Below, in pieces: positions 1-6,369 of a stretch of 13,779 nt of DNA; within the stretch, counting starts at the first letter, position 1, and every line of letters starts with the position of its first letter. The DNA comes from a virus, in the IMG/VR virus record IMGVR_UViG_3300045988_103014, positions 1 through 13,779 of that record. One strand, written 5' to 3'. Made by a program: the position numbers and the translations under genes. The notes under the pieces are model-generated. The model searched no databases, was not told where the DNA came from, and was given only the letters and a program-made list of their open reading frames with translations.

Positions 1-468
1 TCCAGAAGTCACAGAAGTTGGAGTCGCAATCGGTTTAACCTCCAAACTCCACATTCCAACAGCCAAAGCAATAGGGTCCCAGTCATCTGCGACATAATGC
101 AGAAACTCATCTGCGGTCGTCGCCTTAAATCCCTCTGTCTGCTCAGTATGTGTACATTTATGAGAAGCCTGCGGCTTCTCTGTTTTCTGTGGCTTTGGCT
201 TTGGCTTATCAACTGCCTTTGAGCGCGAAGCGCTCAAATAGTCAAATGGATTATCATATTCCGTTACACCACCATCGGGACTAATATGACCTATAACCAC
301 CATATTTTTAACTAATATACTCTCATACTTACCCGGTTTAACCAGAGCATAAACAATATTTCTTTTAACCTGAGACAACTTATCAAACTCGTTTTGTGGA
401 ATAACAAAGACTTCATTTCCATTATACTGTCCAATAACGCCTCTTTCATCTCTAATATCCAAACTCAT
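1..468 (-). CDS. Hypothetical protein, 5' part only; the gene continues past the window start
   Basis: Hand translation of the minus strand from the ATG at 468-466 (MSLDIRDERGVIGQYNGNEVFVIPQNEFDKLSQVKRNIVYALVKPGKYESILVKNMVVIGH...) is open all the way to position 1. There is an in-frame stop just upstream at 489-487. A consensus promoter at 538-566 drives it. It is absent from the ORF track because it runs off the window edge. Confidence 0.6.
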   Translation of the reverse strand, partial: MSLDIRDERGVIGQYNGNEVFVIPQNEFDKLSQVKRNIVYALVKPGKYESILVKNMVVIGHISPDGGVTEYDNPFDYLSASRSKAVDKPKPKPQKTEKPQASHKCTHTEQTEGFKATTADEFLHYVADDWDPIALAVGMWSLEVKPIATPTSVTSG

Positions 469-537
469 TTTTCCAACCGTTCCTTTCTAAACTGAAAATC
501 CCTACTGTTCCTTTCAATTATTCTATCTTACATATAT

Positions 538-566
538 ATTGTATCATATTTATTTATATTTATCAA
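538..566 (-). promoter_or_regulatory. Sigma-A type promoter on the minus strand (TTGATA-N17-TACAAT) followed by the ATATATGTAAGATA leader; it drives the 1..468 gene
   Basis: The reverse complement of 561-566 is TTGATA and of 538-543 is TACAAT, with exactly 17 nt between them. The reverse complement of 524-537 is ATATATGTAAGATA. This is the same conserved post-promoter leader seen at the nine + strand promoters. Confidence 0.6.
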
Positions 567-639
567 CTAATATATACCCCCACTTTTGAAATGAAATTTT
601 ATAATGCCCTCTCTCCCTCCATGCCCCGGATTTAAAAAA

Positions 640-1200
640 TTCCGAGCGCCCCATGAGGAATTTTTAAGAATGGAGTCTGAGGACGAAGTCCGAAGACGGA
701 ATTCTTAAAATTCCGAATTCTTCTCTATATCTTAACTATTCAGACAGACAGAATTTAAGACAGAATTTAAGAATTTTATAAGACTTTTCGGAATTTTTCT
801 CCGAACAATAAATCAAAATTCCGAAAACAGACTCTGATTTTAAGAATTTCATCACAGTTTTAGGATAAAATTCTTAAAACTCTTCAGCATTTTTATCTTA
901 AAACTCAAATGAAATTCTTAAAACAGACTCCGATTTTAAGAAAAATATCCACATTTTCAGACACGGTTGGGATAAAATTCTTAAAACTGTTTTCGGAATT
1001 TTTGTCTGAAAACTCAAGTAAAATTCTTAAGAACAGAATTCTTTTTCAGAATTTCATCCAAAATTCCGAAAACGTTTTAGGAAAAAAATCTTAAAACCTA
1101 TATTCAGTTGTCTTAACTTCAGACTCTTTTTCGGAATCTGTCTCAGAATCATTTTCGGAATTTAAGACAGAATTTAGGAAATTAGGATTTTTTCTTTCTC
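640..1200. repeat. Dense non-coding block of iteron-like repeats. Three interleaved motif families are present: AATTCTTAAAAC (at least 10 copies, both orientations), TTCGGAATTTT/AAAATTCCGAA (about 8 copies), and GACAGAATTTARGA (tandem at 747-774, also at 1162-1179). A roughly 97-bp unit is directly repeated at about 826-922 and 923-1020.
   Basis: Read directly from the sequence. Example copies: 699-714 GGAATTCTTAAAATTCC; 866-877, 913-924 and 977-988 AAATTCTTAAAAC; 843-855 and 935-947 TTTTAAGAA; 787-797 and 993-1003 TTCGGAATTTT; 816-826 and 1061-1071 AAAATTCCGAA. The two long units both begin ACAGACTC(T/C)GATTTTAAGAA and end GGATAAAATTCTTAAAACT. Only spurious ORFs fall inside it. Confidence 0.8.
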
Positions 1201-1549
1201 GCCACCCCGGACTTGAATAAATAGTTTTCACATTGATGCCAAGCATTTCGGAAATCTCAGGCGCACGTTTGCCTTCATTAGCCAATTCCCAAACCACTTC
1301 ATCAGACACCAATTTGCGGCGACCGGTTGTTTTACCTATCTCAACTTTCTTATCATAAGAAACCTTCATATTATCAATTTGCGGAACTATAAAGTTCATA
1401 GCCATCTTGACCATTGGGTCATTTGAATTAGGCTCCTCTCCATAAATACCATAGCGAATCAACTGAAAATAGATTTCCTTCTGCTGCTCCACAGGTAATG
1501 ATTCACAAGAGGTAAGCCAGCTGGACATAACTCTCATACTATCGCGCAT
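1091..1549 (-). CDS. DNA-binding protein with a C-terminal helix-turn-helix, of the resolvase / IS630 / sigma-region-4 kind; possibly an ArpU/RinA-type regulator or an iteron-binding protein
   Basis: 152-aa ORF. The AAAGGAGGT Shine-Dalgarno site lies 7 nt upstream of the ATG at 1549-1547. The segment ...LVSDEVVWELANEGKRAPEISEMLGINVKTIYSSPGW fits an HTH pattern. The C-terminal roughly 35 aa are encoded by the repeat block, so the true stop is uncertain. Confidence 0.65.
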   Translation of the reverse strand: MRDSMRVMSSWLTSCESLPVEQQKEIYFQLIRYGIYGEEPNSNDPMVKMAMNFIVPQIDNMKVSYDKKVEIGKTTGRRKLVSDEVVWELANEGKRAPEISEMLGINVKTIYSSPGWRERKNPNFLNSVLNSENDSETDSEKESEVKTTEYRF

Positions 1550-1551
1550 AC

Positions 1552-1770
1552 TTATACCTCCTTTTCCAGAGGACCAAGTACCCTTTGCAGTGCTATGTCA
1601 AACTCTTCACTTCTTTCGAACACCCAGCAAGTATATTCTGGATTTTTTGGATTCGGCATTTCGTGCACAGGGAAGAATCCCATCTCAACTAAAGTGGTCA
1701 TCACTTTAAGCGAGTAAATGATTTTGTTTGGATGCTTCGCATCCAAAGAGTTAGATGTTTTGTTTTGCAT
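1552..1770 (-). CDS. Small hypothetical protein of 72 aa; it resembles small conserved Firmicutes-phage proteins
   Basis: AGGAGA Shine-Dalgarno site upstream of the ATG at 1770. Its stop at 1552-1554 sits directly next to the downstream gene's ATG at 1549, which suggests translational coupling. Sequence: MQNKTSNSLDAKHPNKIIYSLKVMTTLVEMGFFPVHEMPNPKNPEYTCWVFERSEEFDIAL... Confidence 0.6.
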   Translation of the reverse strand: MQNKTSNSLDAKHPNKIIYSLKVMTTLVEMGFFPVHEMPNPKNPEYTCWVFERSEEFDIALQRVLGPLEKEV

Positions 1771-1783
1771 TAGATTATCTCCT

Positions 1784-1936
1784 TTATAGAATTTGTTCTG
1801 CGATATATTCCTTTATCGCTTTGCGAATAACTTGCGACAGGGTCAAGCCTTCTTCCTTCGCGTAGTCTTGCAATACTTCTTTTTCGGCGGGGTCAATTCT
1901 AATAGTAATTGTTGCGCCGGTATTTTCATTCGACAA
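1784..1936 (-). CDS. Ribbon-helix-helix (CopG/Arc/MetJ-like) DNA-binding protein of 50 aa with a TTG start
   Basis: Hand translation of the minus strand gives (M/L)SNENTGATITIRIDPAEKEVLQDYAKEEGLTLSQVIRKAIKEYIAEQIL, then TAA (reverse complement of 1784-1786). The ITIRID stretch looks like a beta-strand, followed by two helices, which is the classic RHH layout. AAAGGAG sits 9 nt upstream of the TTG (reverse complement of 1934-1936). There is an in-frame TGA upstream and no in-frame ATG. The ORF track omits it because it is short and starts with TTG. Confidence 0.55.
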   Translation of the reverse strand: MSNENTGATITIRIDPAEKEVLQDYAKEEGLTLSQVIRKAIKEYIAEQIL

Positions 1937-2040
1937 ATGAATCAACTCCTTTCACTTATATATGAAAGTTAGAACTCAAATTTTGTCTTACATTGTCCTA
2001 CACGATTATCGTCATTTAGCGTTAAACACCGTCCCCATAG

Positions 2041-2079
2041 ACTCTGAAAATGTCCTAAATTCGGTCTTAATTTCAGAGT
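2041..2079. promoter_or_regulatory. Operator-like element in the divergent control region. A 9-bp inverted repeat (ACTCTGAAA ... TTTCAGAGT) flanks the 18-mer TCCTAAATTCGGTCTTAA.
   Basis: Inverted repeat at 2041-2049 and 2071-2079. The reverse complement of 2053-2070 is TTAAGACCGAATTTAGGA, which matches 1162-1179 (TTAAGACAGAATTTAGGA) at 17 of 18 positions and 755-772 (TTAAGACAGAATTTAAGA) at 16 of 18. Confidence 0.5.
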
Positions 2080-2262
2080 TTAGGATAAATATATAGAAAC
2101 ATTGCGGCTTTCCAATTTTCTGGGGCCTGGCAATGAGAATAAAAGGTCAATAAAATCCGTTACGATTTTTTTCTTAATTCAATTATACCAAATATTTCAC
2201 GCAAAATCAACCTAATAAGGCTTGCAGTTCACCTCCCCCTTTAAGAAACCTGAAGGTCACTA

Positions 2263-2291
2263 TTGATTTTTTATAAAAAATTTGTTATAAT
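2263..2291 (+). promoter_or_regulatory. Promoter P1: TTGATT-N17-TATAAT with an extended-10 TG, followed by the conserved ATATATGTAAGAT...GAAAGGGTTG leader
   Basis: -35 at 2263-2268, 17-nt spacer TTTTTTATAAAAAATTTGT, -10 at 2286-2291. It is the first of nine nearly identical + strand units. Confidence 0.75.
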
Positions 2292-2335
2292 ATATATGTA
2301 AGATGAAAGAAAGATAAATGAAAGGGTTGATGAAT

Positions 2336-2839
2336 ATGACACTTGAGCAGATTAAAGAGATAGCAAATGAATACGCAGCAAAGGTTGGTATGACTTTAGA
2401 TATTCCAGTAGTAATCAATGGAAGATTAACCAGAACATTAGGTTGTGTGCGCTCCGTTCGTAACACTCGTACAGGCTATGTTGAAGCAACTCAGATGGAC
2501 ATCTCTCGTCAAATGCTTGACACTTGCTCAGAAGATAGCATCAGAAGTGTCATTGGTCACGAAGTAGCCCACTATGTAGTAATCCAGGAGACACACGCAA
2601 GTCATGGACACGACGCAGTTTTCAAAGCTGCTTGCGCTCGTCTCGGTGTTGAGAACGACAAGCCTGCAACAGAGGTAGAAAGAGTTGTGGCTGTTCACTC
2701 TAAATATGAAGTATGGTGTGACACTTGTAATGAGAATGTTGGTAACTATTCTCGTATGTGTAAGACACTGCAGAACCTTGCGTTCTGCACTTGCAACAAG
2801 TGTAAAACAAGTAACCTTAGATTAGTTCAGAATTGGTAG
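2336..2839 (+). CDS. SprT-like zinc metalloprotease (HExxH) with a C-terminal Cys-rich zinc ribbon
   Basis: GRLTRTLGCV, then IRSVIGHEVAHYVV (the HEVAH motif), then HGHDAVFKAACARLG, all fit the SprT-like domain pattern. The C-terminus reads CDTCNEN...MCKTLQNLAFCTCNKCK. The track ORF starts at 2318, but the conserved GAAAGGGTTG leader (compare 3301-3318) argues for the ATG at 2336. Confidence 0.8.
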   Translation: MTLEQIKEIANEYAAKVGMTLDIPVVINGRLTRTLGCVRSVRNTRTGYVEATQMDISRQMLDTCSEDSIRSVIGHEVAHYVVIQETHASHGHDAVFKAACARLGVENDKPATEVERVVAVHSKYEVWCDTCNENVGNYSRMCKTLQNLAFCTCNKCKTSNLRLVQNW

Positions 2840-2849
2840 GAGGTAGAAA

Positions 2850-3044
2850 ATGGCAGATGAAATTATCAAACTGTATGAATATTTTTGCAACGACCCGGCT
2901 ATGCAAACACTGGCAATCGTAGTGTGTATTGGATTTGTCCTGTTTATTCTGCTATGGCTGTTTGTGTTCGGTTTCATTATGAAGCAGTTTTTCGGAATGA
3001 GAAAAGAGTTTAAGGATTTTGATAAGCATTTTAAGAACTGGTAG
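2850..3044 (+). CDS. Small predicted membrane protein of 64 aa with one hydrophobic helix
   Basis: TAGGAGGTAGAAA Shine-Dalgarno site, then the ATG. The stretch LAIVVCIGFVLFILLWLFVFGFI looks transmembrane and the tail is basic. Confidence 0.6.
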   Translation: MADEIIKLYEYFCNDPAMQTLAIVVCIGFVLFILLWLFVFGFIMKQFFGMRKEFKDFDKHFKNW

Positions 3045-3055
3045 GAGGTGACATC

Positions 3056-3214
3056 GTGAATCATACTCTGTTTCATATCTATATGATTGAATATAAGTAT
3101 CACGATAAAGCCAGTAAGAAAGATTATTTGAATGGGCGTGTCAATGAGATGCACGCCCAGAAGGCTCAAGAAGCCAAAGATAAGATGCGGGCTTTATTGC
3201 AGAGAGGGAAGTAA
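3056..3214 (+). CDS. Small hypothetical protein of 52 aa with a GTG start
   Basis: GGAGGTGACATC followed by the GTG at 3056. Hand translation: MNHTLFHIYMIEYKYHDKASKKDYLNGRVNEMHAQKAQEAKDKMRALLQRGK*. It ends inside the terminator stem at 3201-3236. Confidence 0.4.
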   Translation: MNHTLFHIYMIEYKYHDKASKKDYLNGRVNEMHAQKAQEAKDKMRALLQRGK

Positions 3215-3249
3215 CCATTTAGCTACTTCCCTCTCTAATTGATTTTTAT
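3201..3249 (+). terminator. Intrinsic terminator; its T-tract overlaps the -35 of promoter P2
   Basis: 13-bp stem: AGAGAGGGAAGTA (3201-3213) pairs with TACTTCCCTCTCT (3224-3236), loop of 10 nt, then AATTGATTTTTAT. Confidence 0.7.
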
Positions 3250-3267
3250 AAAAAAAAATGTTATTAT
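3239..3267 (+). promoter_or_regulatory. Promoter P2: TTGATT-N17-TATTAT, then the ATATATGTAATAAAGATAAAGAA leader
   Basis: -35 at 3239-3244, -10 at 3262-3267, TG at -15/-14. Confidence 0.75.
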
Positions 3268-3318
3268 ATATATGTAATAAAGATAAAGAATGTAATCACG
3301 AAAGGGTTGGTGGAATAT

Positions 3319-4041
3319 ATGGTAGCAAAGTCTTATCAGAATTTGAAAGTTGTTAAAGAGCCTTATATGGTAAATGGCAGAATGTATGTTCAGGTGGAAC
3401 TCGGCAATGGTTCTGCAAAACAGGTGCGCTGGTATTCTGACGCAGAGTATAAGAAGATGTATCCTGATGCAGTAATCGACCATAGCAACGACCCTTACTG
3501 GAAGAGCCAGAAGGAAGTGCTTGGATTTAAGGCTGGTTTCATTACCATCTTTACAGGCAACACATATGAGAATAAGGAATGGTTCAAGGAAATCGGTTGT
3601 ACTTACCGTAAGTTCTGGGGCTGGGGACTTCCTGGCGATATGGAACTTCCTGCTGAGCTTCCTGAGGGAATTGCGGCTGTTCGTCTTGACTGGGAGCTTG
3701 TAGGCAAGGACGACGAGGTTCTCAAGACTGATGCTGAAGTTCAGAAGGCAGTTGCATCTCTTACTGAAGAGCCAAGCGTTTCTGAGTATCAGGGTACTAT
3801 CGGTGATAGAATTACTGTTGAACTCACAGTTAAGAAGGCTATCAAACTCAATGGCTTCTATGGTGAAAGCACTATGCACATTATGGAAGATGCTGCTCAG
3901 AATGTATATGTATGGACAACTGCATCTAAGACCTGGGCAGAGGGTGCTGTTAAGGTAGTTGCGGGAACCATCAAAGACCATAGAGAATATAAGAATACAA
4001 AGCAGACTGTTCTTACTCGTTGTAAGGAAGTTGTGAAATAA
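3319..4041 (+). CDS. Hypothetical protein of about 240 aa; the C-terminal third may be an OB-fold-like domain
   Basis: The long ORF in the track starts at the TTG at 3307. The ATG at 3319 lies behind GAAAGGGTTGGTGGAATAT and is more likely. No recognisable catalytic motifs. Confidence 0.7.
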   Translation: MVAKSYQNLKVVKEPYMVNGRMYVQVELGNGSAKQVRWYSDAEYKKMYPDAVIDHSNDPYWKSQKEVLGFKAGFITIFTGNTYENKEWFKEIGCTYRKFWGWGLPGDMELPAELPEGIAAVRLDWELVGKDDEVLKTDAEVQKAVASLTEEPSVSEYQGTIGDRITVELTVKKAIKLNGFYGESTMHIMEDAAQNVYVWTTASKTWAEGAVKVVAGTIKDHREYKNTKQTVLTRCKEVVK

Positions 4042-4056
4042 GGGAGGAAGAGAAGA

Positions 4057-4215
4057 ATGAGAAAGTTGAATATTGTTTTGGTAATACTGTGGGCAATCTG
4101 TCTGATTATGGATATTGTGAGCTGGGCGAATGGCGGCTCCCCTAATTGGCTCAATATGATACTTGCCCATGTGTGCTTGATTATCAATAACCTTGATTTG
4201 TCGCTGAGAAAGTAG
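4057..4215 (+). CDS. Small predicted membrane protein of 52 aa
   Basis: GGGAGGAAGAGAAGA, then ATG. Sequence: MRKLNIVLVILWAICLIMDIVSWANGGSPNWLNMILAHVCLIINNLDLSLRK*. Two hydrophobic segments. Confidence 0.5.
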   Translation: MRKLNIVLVILWAICLIMDIVSWANGGSPNWLNMILAHVCLIINNLDLSLRK

Positions 4216-4226
4216 GAGGTGCGGAT

Positions 4227-4376
4227 ATGCAGGTTGTGATTGAAATTTCTGAAGATGAGATGTTTGAGTTATCCAGAGGAGTGAGAAGCATGAGCGACCT
4301 GGATATTGTGATTAAAGAAAATCTGATTGAAGACCCCGAAGCTATTTTAGGGGCAGAGATAAGGGTGGTGAAATAA
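4227..4376 (+). CDS. Small acidic hypothetical protein of 49 aa
   Basis: GTAGGAGGTGCGGAT, then ATG. Sequence: MQVVIEISEDEMFELSRGVRSMSDLDIVIKENLIEDPEAILGAEIRVVK*. Its TAA overlaps the next ATG (TAATG). Confidence 0.45.
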   Translation: MQVVIEISEDEMFELSRGVRSMSDLDIVIKENLIEDPEAILGAEIRVVK

Positions 4377-4624
4377 TGGCAGTATCTGGTTATCATCATT
4401 CTGGTGCTTGTCATTTTGACCTATGGGCACCAGGAGAGAGAACTGATGTCGAAAACCGAGCATTTTCTCCATATGCCAAACATATGCAAGAGCTTGAGGA
4501 TATAATTCAAAGTTGTGTCGAGGCTGCGCTGAGAGGAGAAACTAATTTAACATTTGACCTTGATGATGACTTGTCTGACGAAGATTTGGCTTATATTCAA
4601 TCGGAAATTCAGAAAAGGGTATAA
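4376..4624 (+). CDS. Hypothetical protein of 82 aa
   Basis: ORF from the track. Its start is coupled to the upstream stop. Acidic C-terminal half. Confidence 0.55.
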   Translation: MAVSGYHHSGACHFDLWAPGERTDVENRAFSPYAKHMQELEDIIQSCVEAALRGETNLTFDLDDDLSDEDLAYIQSEIQKRV

Positions 4625-4629
4625 TAACA

Positions 4630-4660
4630 GGGAGCTTGCGGGCTCCCTTGATTTTTATTA
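4630..4660 (+). terminator. Intrinsic terminator overlapping the -35 of promoter P3
   Basis: GGGAGC (4630-4635) and GCTCCC (4642-4647) form the stem; TTGATTTTTATT follows. Confidence 0.65.
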
Positions 4661-4676
4661 AAATTTATGGTATTAT
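4648..4676 (+). promoter_or_regulatory. Promoter P3: TTGATT-N17-TATTAT plus the conserved leader
   Basis: -35 at 4648-4653, -10 at 4671-4676, then ATATATGTAATAAAGATAAAGGAAAGG. Confidence 0.75.
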
Positions 4677-4716
4677 ATATATGTAATAAAGATAAAGGAA
4701 AGGTAAGGTGTTGATT

Positions 4717-4860
4717 ATGAGAAAGTTACCTGAAAGCGATTTAGAACAGATTTTAGAATTACCTGAGTACATTCAGGACCAGGTACTTCTTAAGGGTGAA
4801 CACTTTGATGCAGATAAATGGGATAAGTATTTAGCAGATAAGGAGAGTGGTCGTAAATGA
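4717..4860 (+). CDS. Small hypothetical protein of 47 aa
   Basis: Sequence: MRKLPESDLEQILELPEYIQDQVLLKGEHFDADKWDKYLADKESGRK*. Its TGA overlaps the next ATG (ATGA at 4857-4860). Confidence 0.45.
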   Translation: MRKLPESDLEQILELPEYIQDQVLLKGEHFDADKWDKYLADKESGRK

Positions 4861-5291
4861 GAAAAATGAGAAAAACTTATCAGAGAAAATTTAACGCAGT
4901 AATGCGTAAGTTAAATAGAAATATTGCCAATGATGATTTGTGGCGCGGACGCTTCTATTTCTTCCAGAAGGATATGAGCTTTGAAGAGTTCGAGGACCAT
5001 TCCGGTGGAATGATGCACATTGTGATAAGAGCCTATGATAAAAAAACTGGCTATTACAAGGATTTCATTGTTGAGTGGGCGCCATATTTAACCTTTGGTG
5101 GACATAGAATATGGGAAATGGCTAATCATTTTATCGCAGAAGACAGCGGCGTGTGGTATGAAGAGCCAAGAATAAATAGAGTAACTGCGCCGGATTGGAC
5201 TGGTGTTCGAGTGGACACTGGTAAAGTTGGTGCTTATGAACCGAACTATTATGTGAGTTATAAATATTGGAAGGAGAACAACAATGGGTAA
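4857..5291 (+). CDS. Hypothetical protein of 144 aa
   Basis: ORF from the track. Its start is coupled to the upstream ORF, and its last 8 nt overlap the phosphatase gene. Confidence 0.65.
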   Translation: MRKMRKTYQRKFNAVMRKLNRNIANDDLWRGRFYFFQKDMSFEEFEDHSGGMMHIVIRAYDKKTGYYKDFIVEWAPYLTFGGHRIWEMANHFIAEDSGVWYEEPRINRVTAPDWTGVRVDTGKVGAYEPNYYVSYKYWKENNNG

Positions 5292-6075
5292 GACATATGC
5301 AGTAAGTGATATACACGGCGTGATGGACCTGTGGCGACAGATTTCTGAATACTGCGGTCCAGACGACACTATATATTTTCTCGGTGATGCTTCAGACAGA
5401 GGTCCTCAGTGCTGGACAACTCTGATGGCAATTTACAATGACCCGAGAGTAAGGTTTATTAAGGGAAACCACGAGGATATGCTTGTTAAGGCTATCCAGC
5501 AGGAAAGAAGTGACCTGCCTTGGCGTGATGACATTCAGTTGCTTTATCACAACGGTGGAGAGCGCACACTTGAAGGTTTCCTTGCTATGAGTAAGGAAGA
5601 GCAGGATAAGTGGTATGCTACTCTTGTTCAGCTTCCTACTCGTCTTGATTATGTAAACACAAGTGGACAGAAGATTGCGTTGACACATGCGGGCTTCGAC
5701 CCTTGGCAGGATGAGGAGTGGCGTGATTATATCTGGGATAGAGACCATATTAGTAGCCATTGGTCATATCCAGAAGATGAAAAGTGTGAAGGCGATGAAA
5801 CCGATACTCTTGATTTCATTGTTCATGGTCATACTCCATTTGAATATCTATATACTTGGCATTACAGAGGCTATGATGTAATTTCTCAGGCTCAGTCTGC
5901 GGATGTTCGTCTAACTCCTGATGACCCAATTCATGCAGTAAGATATTGTGGCGGAAAGAAGATTGACATTGATTGCGGTGCCTTCTTCACTGGAGAGACT
6001 CTGCTTCTTGACCTTGATACATTCGAGGAAGTTCACTTTAAGACTGACCTAACTCAGGAAGAGGATGAGGACTAA
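5284..6075 (+). CDS. Metallophosphoesterase of the calcineurin-like PPP family; a Ser/Thr phosphatase of the lambda-phosphatase or ApaH-like kind
   Basis: The PPP motifs appear in order: DIHG, GDASDRG (GDxxDRG), GNHE, and then HAG and HGH further on. 263 aa with an acidic tail. Confidence 0.85.
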   Translation: MGKTYAVSDIHGVMDLWRQISEYCGPDDTIYFLGDASDRGPQCWTTLMAIYNDPRVRFIKGNHEDMLVKAIQQERSDLPWRDDIQLLYHNGGERTLEGFLAMSKEEQDKWYATLVQLPTRLDYVNTSGQKIALTHAGFDPWQDEEWRDYIWDRDHISSHWSYPEDEKCEGDETDTLDFIVHGHTPFEYLYTWHYRGYDVISQAQSADVRLTPDDPIHAVRYCGGKKIDIDCGAFFTGETLLLDLDTFEEVHFKTDLTQEEDED

Positions 6076-6096
6076 TTCTAAAGAGAATTGATACGA

Positions 6097-6140
6097 GGGA
6101 GACTTTTAGGCAACTAAAAGTTCTCCCTTGATTTTTTATA
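6097..6140 (+). terminator. Intrinsic terminator overlapping the -35 of promoter P4
   Basis: GGGAGACTTTTAG (6097-6109), loop gcaa, CTAAAAGTTCTCCC (6114-6127), then TTGATTTTTTAT. Confidence 0.75.
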
Positions 6141-6156
6141 AAAATTATGTTATTAT
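6128..6156 (+). promoter_or_regulatory. Promoter P4: TTGATT-N17-TATTAT plus leader
   Basis: -35 at 6128-6133, -10 at 6151-6156, then ATATATGTAAGATAAAGAAAGGAAGG. Confidence 0.75.
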
Positions 6157-6190
6157 ATATATGTAAGATAAAGAAAGGAAGGTAATGGTT

Positions 6191-6355
6191 ATGGGTATTA
6201 AAGAGTTTCTCTGTAAACACAGTGTATATACTATAATTAAGAGTGAAAGAGCTGATACAAAATATGTTTGCCAGTGTCAGAAGTGCGGACACCAGTGGAC
6301 AAAGATGAAGGCAGCTGGTGAAGATTACGAAGTCGGAACTGTTGTTCATAGATAA
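6191..6355 (+). CDS. Small Cys-rich hypothetical protein of 54 aa; the CQCQKCGH stretch could bind zinc
   Basis: AAAGGAAGG sits 8 nt upstream of the ATG at 6191. An alternative ATG at 6185 exists. Sequence: MGIKEFLCKHSVYTIIKSERADTKYVCQCQKCGHQWTKMKAAGEDYEVGTVVHR*. Confidence 0.45.
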   Translation: MGIKEFLCKHSVYTIIKSERADTKYVCQCQKCGHQWTKMKAAGEDYEVGTVVHR

Positions 6356-6369
6356 GGAGGTCGGTCAGT

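Follow-up and report, generated by a model that had tools for sequence, protein, structure and literature searches.

A dense repeat array beginning inside the gene of a DUF6291 helix-turn-helix protein, its putative binder, as a candidate replication origin of a large gut phage

Phage replisome organisers, among them SPP1 gp38 (oriL), lambda O (ori-lambda), TP901-1 Rep and the Javan290 protein, bind repeats that lie within or abut their own small-protein genes, and the low-complexity part of these proteins is encoded by the repeats. In SPP1, gp38 binds the direct repeats of oriL within gene 38, beside an AT-rich unwinding element (PMC6316719). At the iteron origins of plasmids (pPS10 RepA, R6K pi, RK2 TrfA), phased 17-22-bp direct repeats lie beside the gene of a winged-helix Rep initiator, with further sites at its promoter and, usually, DnaA boxes. 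The centromeres recognized by ribbon-helix-helix (RHH) proteins (R1 parC/ParR, TP228 parH/ParG and pSM19035 omega) are likewise dense repeats in both orientations next to an RHH-containing operon, and are found at its promoter too. In the large lytic phage T4, which has no canonical initiator-helicase cassette, oriE combines an iteron cluster of direct 12-mers with the small early proteins RepEA and RepEB. Here we describe a repeat block at positions 640-1200 of a 13,779-nucleotide stretch of viral DNA (positions 1 to 13,779 of the IMG/VR record IMGVR_UViG_3300045988_103014; hereafter the window). The block lies downstream of an operon for an RHH protein, a small protein and a helix-turn-helix (HTH) protein, as a preliminary description made from the sequence alone had noted. 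We conclude that it is very probably the cognate binding array of the last of these, a 152-amino acid (aa) protein that joins a DUF6291 domain to an HTH of the resolvase type, and that array and protein together may form a phage replication origin with an autoregulated initiator, a proposal to which we give equal weight for and against.

The block stands where the preliminary description had placed it and is strongly non-random. The hexamer TTMRGA, or its complement TCYKAA, occurs 34 times between 630 and 1200, against 4.2 +/- 1.9 (maximum 12) in 2000 dinucleotide-preserving shuffles of the block itself and ~1.2 copies per 500 bp in the rest of the window. An unbiased k-mer ranking of the block puts GAATTT (18 copies) and TTAAGA (16 copies) on top, and the oriented matches yield the consensus T-T-T-T-[A/C]-[A/G]-G-A-A-T-T-T, in which the flanking T's and the trailing A-T-T-T are well above background and the central dinucleotide is AA at 16 sites, CG at nine, CA at five and AG at four. 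The three interleaved iteron families reported earlier are thus all variants of one degenerate site, (G)TTTT-MR-GAATTT. The copy numbers given for two of them were too high: the first string, put at 10 or more, is present exactly (AATTCTTAAAAC) three times (869, 913 and 976) and as the 9-mer AATTCTTAA seven times counting both strands, and the second, put at about eight, TTCGGAATTTT, five times (two forward, three reverse). The third, GACAGAATTTARGA, occurs in tandem at 747 and 759 and again at 1166, as described, and TTCGGAAT has seven copies in the block.

Helical phasing, suggested earlier as a check, is present. The site centres show a period of 10.75 bp (Rayleigh power 8.4; ~99th percentile of random placements), so that the sites tend toward one face of the helix, and adjacent sites are mainly 20 bp (nine cases) or 12-13 bp (nine cases) apart. 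Periods of 10.5-11.25 bp are also at or near the top in the arrays of four relatives, only that of L021 lying above the 95th percentile of random placements. Several inverted pairs, in which hexamers 20 bp apart enclose A/T tracts (820/840, 916/936 and 1025/1045), recall hixL, where the hexamers likewise stand 20 bp apart with A/T tracts inside. A duplication of ~97 bp had been reported at 826-1020; the repeat structure is real, but in place of two copies there are three diverged super-units (Table 1), spaced by 96 and 109 bp, with a mean column identity of 78% and with copies 2 and 3 respectively 75% and 65% identical to copy 1. Each contains about five sites at conserved positions, with spacings of 13, 20, 20 and 20 bp, and motif variants swap at equivalent positions (e.g. 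TCCGAA / TCTTAA / TCTGAA), which argues that selection acts on the degenerate consensus and not on any single word. The array also holds a conserved core of 43 nt, with a tandem repeat of period 12 at 746-772, that is 100% identical in the relative L006 although the L006 protein is only 64% identical and the rest of the arrays is rearranged. Among near-identical contigs covering 293-1255 there are zero mismatches, whereas the neighbouring gene has 15 single-nucleotide polymorphisms (SNPs). The earlier statement that no convincing open reading frame (ORF) spans the block holds insofar as the block contains only a 61-aa low-complexity ORF (909-1094, plus strand); the array nevertheless overlaps the last ~110 nt of the 152-aa gene (1091-1200), and so starts within the 3' end of that gene.

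The 152-aa protein matches Pfam DUF6291 (PF19808) over residues 9-78 (53.3 bits against a cutoff of 27.2; E 3.1e-14). It consists of a helical bundle (1-74; three helices at 9-15, 20-36 and 45-74 in the AlphaFold2 (AF2) model), a GRRK arm (76-79), an HTH (83-117; helices at 83-91, 96-103 and 107-112 in the same model, then a conserved G-W-K-x-R-K) and a disordered, acidic, Ser-rich tail ending in Y-R-F. In family alignments the arm linker G-R-[RKP]-K is nearly invariant, with G76 and R77 invariant or nearly so. A 60-member family profile matches Tn3 resolvase (5cy1; E 6.6e-6) and gamma-delta resolvase (1gdt; E 1.2e-5) at resolvase residues 124-177, a stretch that runs from the end of helix E through the GRRR arm to the HTH. 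Longer relatives match Pfam HTH_7, HTH_23 and Sigma70_r4_2, and the top Foldseek ranks, none of them significant, are held by Tn3 and gamma-delta resolvase and the Hin DNA-binding domain. With three helices following a basic G-R-x-R/K arm and with this similarity to recombinases, the domain falls into the resolvase/Hin type. In the solved DNA complexes of gamma-delta resolvase and Hin, such a domain makes its major-groove contacts with a hexamer, and its arm reads the neighbouring A/T tract from the minor groove. The array site has this same layout of hexamer plus A/T tract, shared with the res and hix half-sites, which is counted in favour of the DUF6291-HTH protein as its binder. In contrast to the serine recombinases, the protein has no catalytic domain (no Resolvase domain match), its N-terminus being the DUF6291 bundle; its sites number dozens rather than 2-6, and there is no evidence of recombination. 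The tail is real coding sequence, and its codons (residues ~117-152) are the first repeats of the array, read as NPNFLNSVLNSENDSE. The protein closes with the residues ...EVKTTEYRF, and a [FWY]-x-F C-terminus after a disordered acidic linker recurs in 34 of 102 family representatives of 110-200 aa (EYRF, TWEF, FDF, WNF), so that from its sequence it looks like a partner-docking motif.

DUF6291 proteins form 472 clusters at 50% identity in a search with the family profile, and homologues are rare in the word-indexed search. With tblastn, the 152-aa protein found only two weak, unannotated matches among phages, P0023 none among phages and the family member P0020 none among plasmids. Scans of IMG/VR with peptide patterns from the 152-aa protein or from alignment A4 found no relatives, and the 60-sequence family alignment was too diverse for the design of such patterns. 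The NCBIfam search gave nothing informative, and no paper mentioning DUF6291 or PF19808 was found in the literature searched.

Relatives of the protein from five clades, 27-64% identical to it, allow the array and the protein to be compared. Wherever the flanking DNA of a clade was retrieved and read, the DUF6291-HTH gene has an array starting at its 3' end or within that end; the array motif is specific to the clade (Table 1), and the presumed recognition helix differs in parallel with it (KTIYSS, YSSITKS, PSAVYKT, VDSVYHS, VSSVNHS). Arrays recur at one position in five clades, with a motif that varies together with the protein, which gives good support to the idea that the block binds protein cooperatively and belongs with the small DNA-binding proteins encoded next to it. 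As to which protein binds, the RHH gene is absent from L011 and from clade C, where arrays are still present, so that the array tracks the DUF6291-HTH protein and not the RHH protein. On this pattern of co-occurrence, the former is the probable array binder.

At the distal end of the array, adjoining the 43-nt core, lies a palindrome of 62 nt (centre, minus strand: CCGTCTTCGGACTTCGTCC), the DNA of which folds with -11.9 and -13.4 kcal/mol (z -3.8 and -4.7). A hairpin occupies this position in relatives from clades A2, C and D; the sequence of its stems varies with complementarity preserved, and its loop contains an invariant TCGCTTCGCTCG, in place of which the window and clade E have a CTTCG-containing variant. 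Beyond the palindrome the DNA passes through a GC-rich spacer to the most AT-rich segment of the region (531-570), which is a candidate DNA-unwinding element on its composition. Downstream of the hairpin several relatives also contain clusters of AAATGAAA repeats (L021 ~4290-4400, L023 ~7955-8065, L029 ~3180-3250, L067 ~2158-2205, L069 ~740-800) that are independent of the clade-specific iteron and might be a second conserved binding element; the window clade has only two copies (589-598 and 907-916). Because the AATGAAA-repeat cluster at this place, clear in several clades, is weak in both L006 and the window, it was left out of the evidence. Downstream of the clade B array, L019 has a GC-rich region (1700-2400) with at least three copies of a ~40-nt repeat, (g)ctgctagaag...gcatatgg...ggctag.

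The hairpin loop belongs to an element that is also found elsewhere. The 20-mer TAACTTCGCTTCGCTCGTTA occurs in two unrelated IMG/VR contigs (~0.2 expected, an estimate) and at 31 loci of GTDB genomes (~1 expected, likewise estimated), usually at the tip of locus-specific inverted repeats. Campylobacter majalis LMG 7974 has at least nine dispersed copies, an Ignavibacteriota metagenome-assembled genome (MAG) has it in a 229-bp tandem repeated four times, and it is present in Draconibacterium, Bacteroidales and Bacillota MAGs. No Rfam family matches the TCGCTTCGCTCG/TAACTTCGCTTCGCTCGTTA element.

Cultured temperate phages, found by tblastn with DUF6291 family members, place the domain in the context of replication. 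In Riemerella phage PJN03 (L024 6992-7663; DUF6291 E 1.3e-23), the gene lies between ERF and a PD-(D/E)XK exonuclease on one side and a primase-helicase and an SSB, the protein that binds single-stranded DNA, on the other, and carries 3 x 39-bp and 12-bp tandem repeats directly after the DUF6291 domain. In Riemerella phage CRP19 (L025 4986-5690), DUF6291 is followed by Phg_2220_C, the gene having internal tandem repeats of 10 bp (TAGCAAAAA) and 12 bp (AATGTAAATGAA); its N-terminal domain is homologous to the window family (hhalign 98%, E 2.7e-13). In Vibrio phage D478 (L032 4001-4744), the gene, with about 7 x 10-bp iterons (AGCAAAnGnn), follows a 'transcriptional regulator' gene at a divergent junction, which we read as a Cro-like slot with DUF6291 where lambda O would be. 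The 'replication initiation protein' of the Streptococcus phage Javan290 has the same Phg_2220_C C-terminal to Phage_rep_org_N. Because CRP19 combines DUF6291 with Phg_2220_C without similarity to Phage_rep_org_N, DUF6291 is apparently a non-homologous replacement of the N-terminal domain of an organiser that has kept its origin repeats inside the gene, and the 'hypothetical proteins' of PJN03, CRP19 and D478 are, on these domain and repeat arrangements, likely to be replication initiators that have escaped annotation and carry their origins inside the gene. Repeats within the gene or bordering it, giving a low-complexity protein, are thus found in the window as in the Riemerella and Vibrio DUF6291 genes, and as in SPP1 an AT-rich segment lies beside them. 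The iteron-origin option of the preliminary description gains comparative support from the initiator slot of DUF6291, from the in-gene iterons and from the Phg_2220_C shared with replisome organisers.

The data show the array with its statistics and phasing, the covariation of protein and motif across clades, the resolvase-type DNA-binding domain and the place of DUF6291 in the initiator slot of cultured phages; from them we infer that the DUF6291-HTH protein binds the array and that the resulting complex fires replication. The origin assignment draws on the initiator-slot context, on iterons placed within the gene, on clade-specific sites being combined with a clade-independent palindrome and AT-rich segment, and on the recruiting tail. 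In this scheme the TTMRGA hexamer would be read by the HTH through the major groove, and the G-R-[RKP]-K arm would follow the A/T tract along the minor groove, after the manner of gamma-delta/Tn3 resolvase and Hin. Many such molecules on the same side of the helix, spaced by 20 bp or 12-13 bp and probably oligomerised via the N-terminal helical domain, would assemble into a large nucleoprotein complex that ends at the 43-nt core, the 62-nt palindrome, the GC-rich spacer and the 12%-GC segment carrying a phage promoter. The DUF6291-HTH protein would then be the initiator or 'replisome organiser', the array its iterons and the AT-rich segment the unwinding element, and the disordered acidic tail ending in aromatic-x-Phe would be a handle recruiting a replisome component. 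Five or six extra sites in the operon promoter and leader would permit autoregulation alongside the RHH repressor. Five of these form a second TTMRGA cluster at 2043-2085 (0.56 +/- 0.74 in shuffles; P about 5e-4), and a further site at 2172-2177 is close to the expected start of transcription from the 2210->2182 promoter, ~5 bp downstream of its -10 hexamer; both are proposed as autoregulatory sites. As at plasmid iteron origins, phased sites would lie beside the initiator gene and recur at its promoter.

A number of observations weigh against this assignment. Neither the 13.8-kb window nor the precomputed Pfam matches of the flanking contigs L001, L002 and L015-L018 show a recognisable gene for a helicase, primase, polymerase or loader, whereas replisome organisers have a helicase or loader gene adjacent. 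The initiator context is taken from distant relatives, about 30% identical and unlike the window protein in their C-terminal half, and it is only in these that a C-terminal recruiting domain (Phg_2220_C or an equivalent) and a neighbouring helicase or loader are found; the short DUF6291-HTH form has no Phg_2220_C, its resolvase-type HTH being followed only by the short, disordered YRF tail. Between DUF6291 and Phage_rep_org_N (Javan290) or TP901-1 Rep, the hhalign probability is 0.1%, and membership of the classical replisome-organiser family was rejected on this ground; the 152-aa protein likewise has no detectable DnaD/DnaB_2 homology (no Pfam match). About 34 sites of 12-13 bp in mixed orientation exceed the 4-8 direct repeats of classical iteron origins, and in this respect the block would resemble centromeres or silencing arrays at least equally. 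The reader of the sites is of the resolvase type rather than a winged helix, and consistent DnaA boxes (TTATCCACA) are absent, with one 8/9 match in the window and none or scattered ones in relatives. That match (ATATCCACA, 945-953, within the array) is not conserved in relatives and is compatible with chance (~0.16 expected). The GC skew of the window, recommended for inspection in the preliminary description, tracks the coding strand only and gives no origin signal. Finally, the module is a small antiparallel island beside a divergent promoter, a position also typical of immunity and maintenance modules.

Among the alternatives, a role in transcription alone fares best, although we consider it unlikely. 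In that case the array, coated by the DUF6291-HTH protein as a transcription factor, would block read-through from the operon and have no role in replication; the protein would also control the 526-566 promoter and, via the 2043-2085 cluster, the divergent early promoters. Such a silencer or operator hub would account for the array motif in the operon promoter and leader (five sites at 2043-2085, one at 2172) and for an array directly upstream of a conserved phage promoter, and would suit a module placed at a divergent promoter like a phage switch region, with an HTH resembling LuxR/GerE and sigma-70 region 4 regulators. No intrinsic terminator was found after the 152-aa gene, so that a protein roadblock or the palindrome might end the transcript. 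However, at least 34 sites over 560 bp far exceed the needs of repression at one promoter, and the palindrome and core present in several clades, the iteron-in-gene architecture and the initiator-slot context would all be left unexplained.

Less probable again is a centromere-like partition or anchoring site, with the DUF6291-HTH protein as an adaptor like ParR, ParG, omega or TubR whose aromatic-x-Phe tail docks to a motor or a host structure and so positions the phage or plasmid-prophage DNA. The parC/ParR and parH/ParG loci are likewise laid out as a short-repeat array beside the gene of its binder plus another, autoregulatory cluster at the promoter of the operon; the disordered tail, which closes with a hydrophobic motif, recalls the ParM-binding C-terminal tail of ParR, and the operon contains an RHH gene. 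The preliminary description had accordingly compared the block to an RHH-bound, parC-like centromere, which is not borne out: the RHH protein is dispensable for the presence of the array (L011 and clade C) and has a separate, likelier operator at 1983-2002, and Pfam and PHROG matches reveal no ParA, ParM or TubZ-type NTPase in the operon, the window or the syntenic contigs. In contrast to the plasmid systems, these arrays track DUF6291-HTH in a phage context; the element, a large phage, has a sigma factor of its own along with a tRNA array and ROOL RNA, and shows no sign of a plasmid lifestyle. DUF6291 relatives are found in replication rather than partition modules, and one family member used as query found no DUF6291 match in 72,556 plasmids.

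A packaging (pac) site, at which the DUF6291-HTH protein would act as an atypical small terminase oligomerising on repeats in or beside its own gene, is very improbable. Pac sites are often within or beside the small-terminase gene and have repeated boxes (P22, SPP1, P1), the protein, which is small, helical and probably an oligomer, has a docking tail at its C-terminus, and its HTH gives a weak Terminase_5 Pfam match (E 0.004, below cutoff). Against this, no large-terminase gene is adjacent or recognisable in the window, the order of oligomerisation domain and then HTH is the reverse of that in known small terminases, and the DUF6291 genes of cultured phages lie in replication and recombination modules, far from packaging genes. 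Contig ends near the module were considered as genome termini and rejected, as the sequence continues across them in other contigs and a repeated promoter element stands at the breakpoints. Least credible of all, and already disfavoured, is non-functional AT-rich, low-complexity DNA that arose by slippage or duplication and has no specific binder: the block is AT-rich (about 27% GC) with tandem and super-repeat structure, but the enrichment survives dinucleotide-matched shuffles, variants are kept within a strict consensus at equivalent positions, arrays with clade-specific motifs occupy the same position in five clades, the 43-nt core is 100% conserved at 64% protein identity, and strains show zero SNPs in the block.

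Table 1. Features of the repeat block and its operon in the window, with counterparts in relatives
Feature	Position	Strand	Evidence or remark
Array of 34 sites in both orientations, (G)TTTT-MR-GAATTT, core TTMRGA	664..1187	.	k-mer counts, shuffles, phasing
Three diverged super-units, ~96-109 bp	772..1085 (772-867, 868-976, 977-1085)	+	repeat families D1-D5, alignment A2
Conserved array core AAAATTCTTAAATTCTGTCTTAAATTCTGTCTGTCTGAATAGT (read on - strand), containing tandem GACAGAATTTAAGA	735..777	-	alignment A5
62-nt palindrome, potential cruciform/hairpin; arms are inverted motif copies	655..716	.	inverted repeat I8
GC-rich, purine-rich G-tract spacer, 55% GC	611-650	.	40-bp GC profile
Most AT-rich segment of the region, 12% GC	531-570	.	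40-bp GC profile; overlaps promoter of next gene
Promoter of 158-aa gene, TTGATA-17-TACAAT with TG, 566->538	526..566	-	promoter-element match
158-aa gene, beyond the repeat block	start 468, runs off left end of window	-	
DUF6291 + resolvase/Hin-type HTH gene, 152 aa	1091..1549	-	Pfam, profile matches, AF2 models, family alignments
DUF5659-like gene, 72 aa	1552..1770	-	synteny, alignment A6
CopG/Arc-type RHH gene (DUF6290/RHH_9), first of operon	1784..1936	-	Pfam
10-bp tandem TTGTCCTACA / TTGTCTTACA, period 10, 2 copies	1983..2002	.	just upstream of RHH start
Second TTMRGA cluster, 5 sites	2043..2085	.	leader/promoter region of RHH-DUF6291 operon
Operon-region promoter-like sites	2210->2182; 2263->2291	-; +	
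Promoter-element copies	526-547; 2282-2303, 3258-3279, 6147-6168, 7093-7114, 8890-8911	-; + (last five)	
TCGCTTCGCTCG(TT) hairpin loops	L006 2014-2027; L021 4216-4229; L029 3098-3111; L030 2498-2511; L067 ~2040-2052		also L034-L066
Clade A motif, AATTCTGAAAA / AATTCCGAAAA type; TTMRGAATTT (window, L006, L011)	L006/L007, L011		identity 64% (L006/L007), 53% (L011)
Clade B motif, TTTGCAAA	L019, L027		identity ~37-41%
Clade C motif, TTTTAACAAAAA, 13-18 or more copies	L021, L029, L030		identity ~29-31%
Clade D motif, TTTGTAAAATTTACAAA	L067		
Clade E motif, TTTTGCAAAA / CTTGCAAAA	L069		

The genes of the window lie nearly all on the plus strand, from 2318 onward, and it reads as part of a phage; the module forms a minus-strand island comprising the RHH gene (1784-1936/1945), the 72-aa gene, the 152-aa gene, the repeat block and the gene that starts at 468. 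The 53-aa product of the first gene is a DUF6290/RHH_9/CopG-type RHH protein by Pfam, and its gene probably starts with a TTG (1936), which follows AAAGGAG by 9 nt; the ORF finder carries it on to 1945. It is a probable autorepressor, and the 10-bp tandem just upstream, conserved at this place in L006/L007 (TTGTAGGACAAAGTAGGTAAAAG), is on position and conservation its probable operator, distinct from the array motif and loosely similar to it. A PHROGs search of the window proteins added nothing functional for this operon. The 72-aa protein has a homologue (L019:217-408) that matches DUF5659 at 1.2e-4, and in all clades with the upstream region read (A-D) the gene immediately upstream of DUF6291 is a DUF5659-like homologue; from this synteny it may be a cofactor. 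In clade C, the DUF5659-like gene (L021 2990-3169) has two in-frame TAGs where homologues have ordinary residues (MTNKIIYSRKVMN*LVESG...PEF*CWIF), which suggests that TAG is read as a sense codon in these phages.

The promoter element, (A/T)TG(T/A)TAynATATATATGTAAGA, has six copies in the window against 0 expected in shuffles. It comprises an extended -10 and a conserved initial transcribed sequence, and similar elements in relatives coincide with assembly break points.

Searched by megablast, the window as a whole matched nothing in the phage and plasmid collections. Neither Rfam nor ARAGORN found an RNA family or a tRNA in the window, and a known non-coding RNA was accordingly dropped as the explanation of the block. 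In a relative (contig L015) that continues to the right of the window, ~6 kb (12000-17931) are almost without called genes and form an RNA-gene island, with a full-length ROOL RNA (RF03087, 207 bits, 12463-13064) and at least 14 tRNA genes; stop-codon recoding was rejected as the cause of this gene-poor region in relatives. Just upstream of the island is a gene for a 302-aa sigma-70-family protein (10451-11359). The sigma-70 gene, ROOL RNA and tRNA genes on relatives' contigs identify the element as a large, poorly annotated gut phage, of which the 22-35-kb contigs of relatives are fragments. Elsewhere in the window, a 562-aa protein (7145-8833), with a Cys-rich C-terminal segment (CECMACG...CEDCEE...CDDCGD...CESC), and a 463-aa protein (11525-12916) both match phrog_18912, a family of unknown function, and their genes appear to be paralogues.

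An iteron-like array with a cognate, autoregulated binding protein is already known; new here are the family to which the protein belongs, a reader derived from resolvase, an array of this size with sites of mixed polarity, and the conserved hairpin. A far broader proposal is that DUF6291-HTH proteins and their arrays represent a widespread, previously unrecognised class of origin modules, in which a resolvase-derived DNA-binding domain would polymerise on 15-35 helically phased half-sites, recruit the replisome via its aromatic-x-Phe tail and fire where a conserved palindrome presents a loop of 12-14 nt (TCGCTTCGCTCG in most clades). That loop would be a priming or nicking signal common to unrelated phages and to dispersed elements of Campylobacter, Bacteroidota and Bacillota. 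We consider this broader proposal unlikely.

The locus provides a concrete, testable assignment for DUF6291, namely a resolvase-type HTH acting on a cognate array that begins within its own gene, and the clade-specific pairs of motif and recognition helix amount to a ready-made specificity code. Were the module a silencer or a centromere instead of an origin, it would still be an unusually large and well-defined protein-DNA assembly for studies of cooperative binding. If the origin assignment is true, it would show how a group of large, almost unannotated gut phages that carry a sigma factor, a tRNA island and ROOL RNA begin to replicate, would supply an origin/initiator pair for vectors for the hosts of those phages, and would give an annotation to the protein, so far 'hypothetical', that occupies the O-gene slot in Riemerella, Flavobacterium-type and Vibrio temperate phages.

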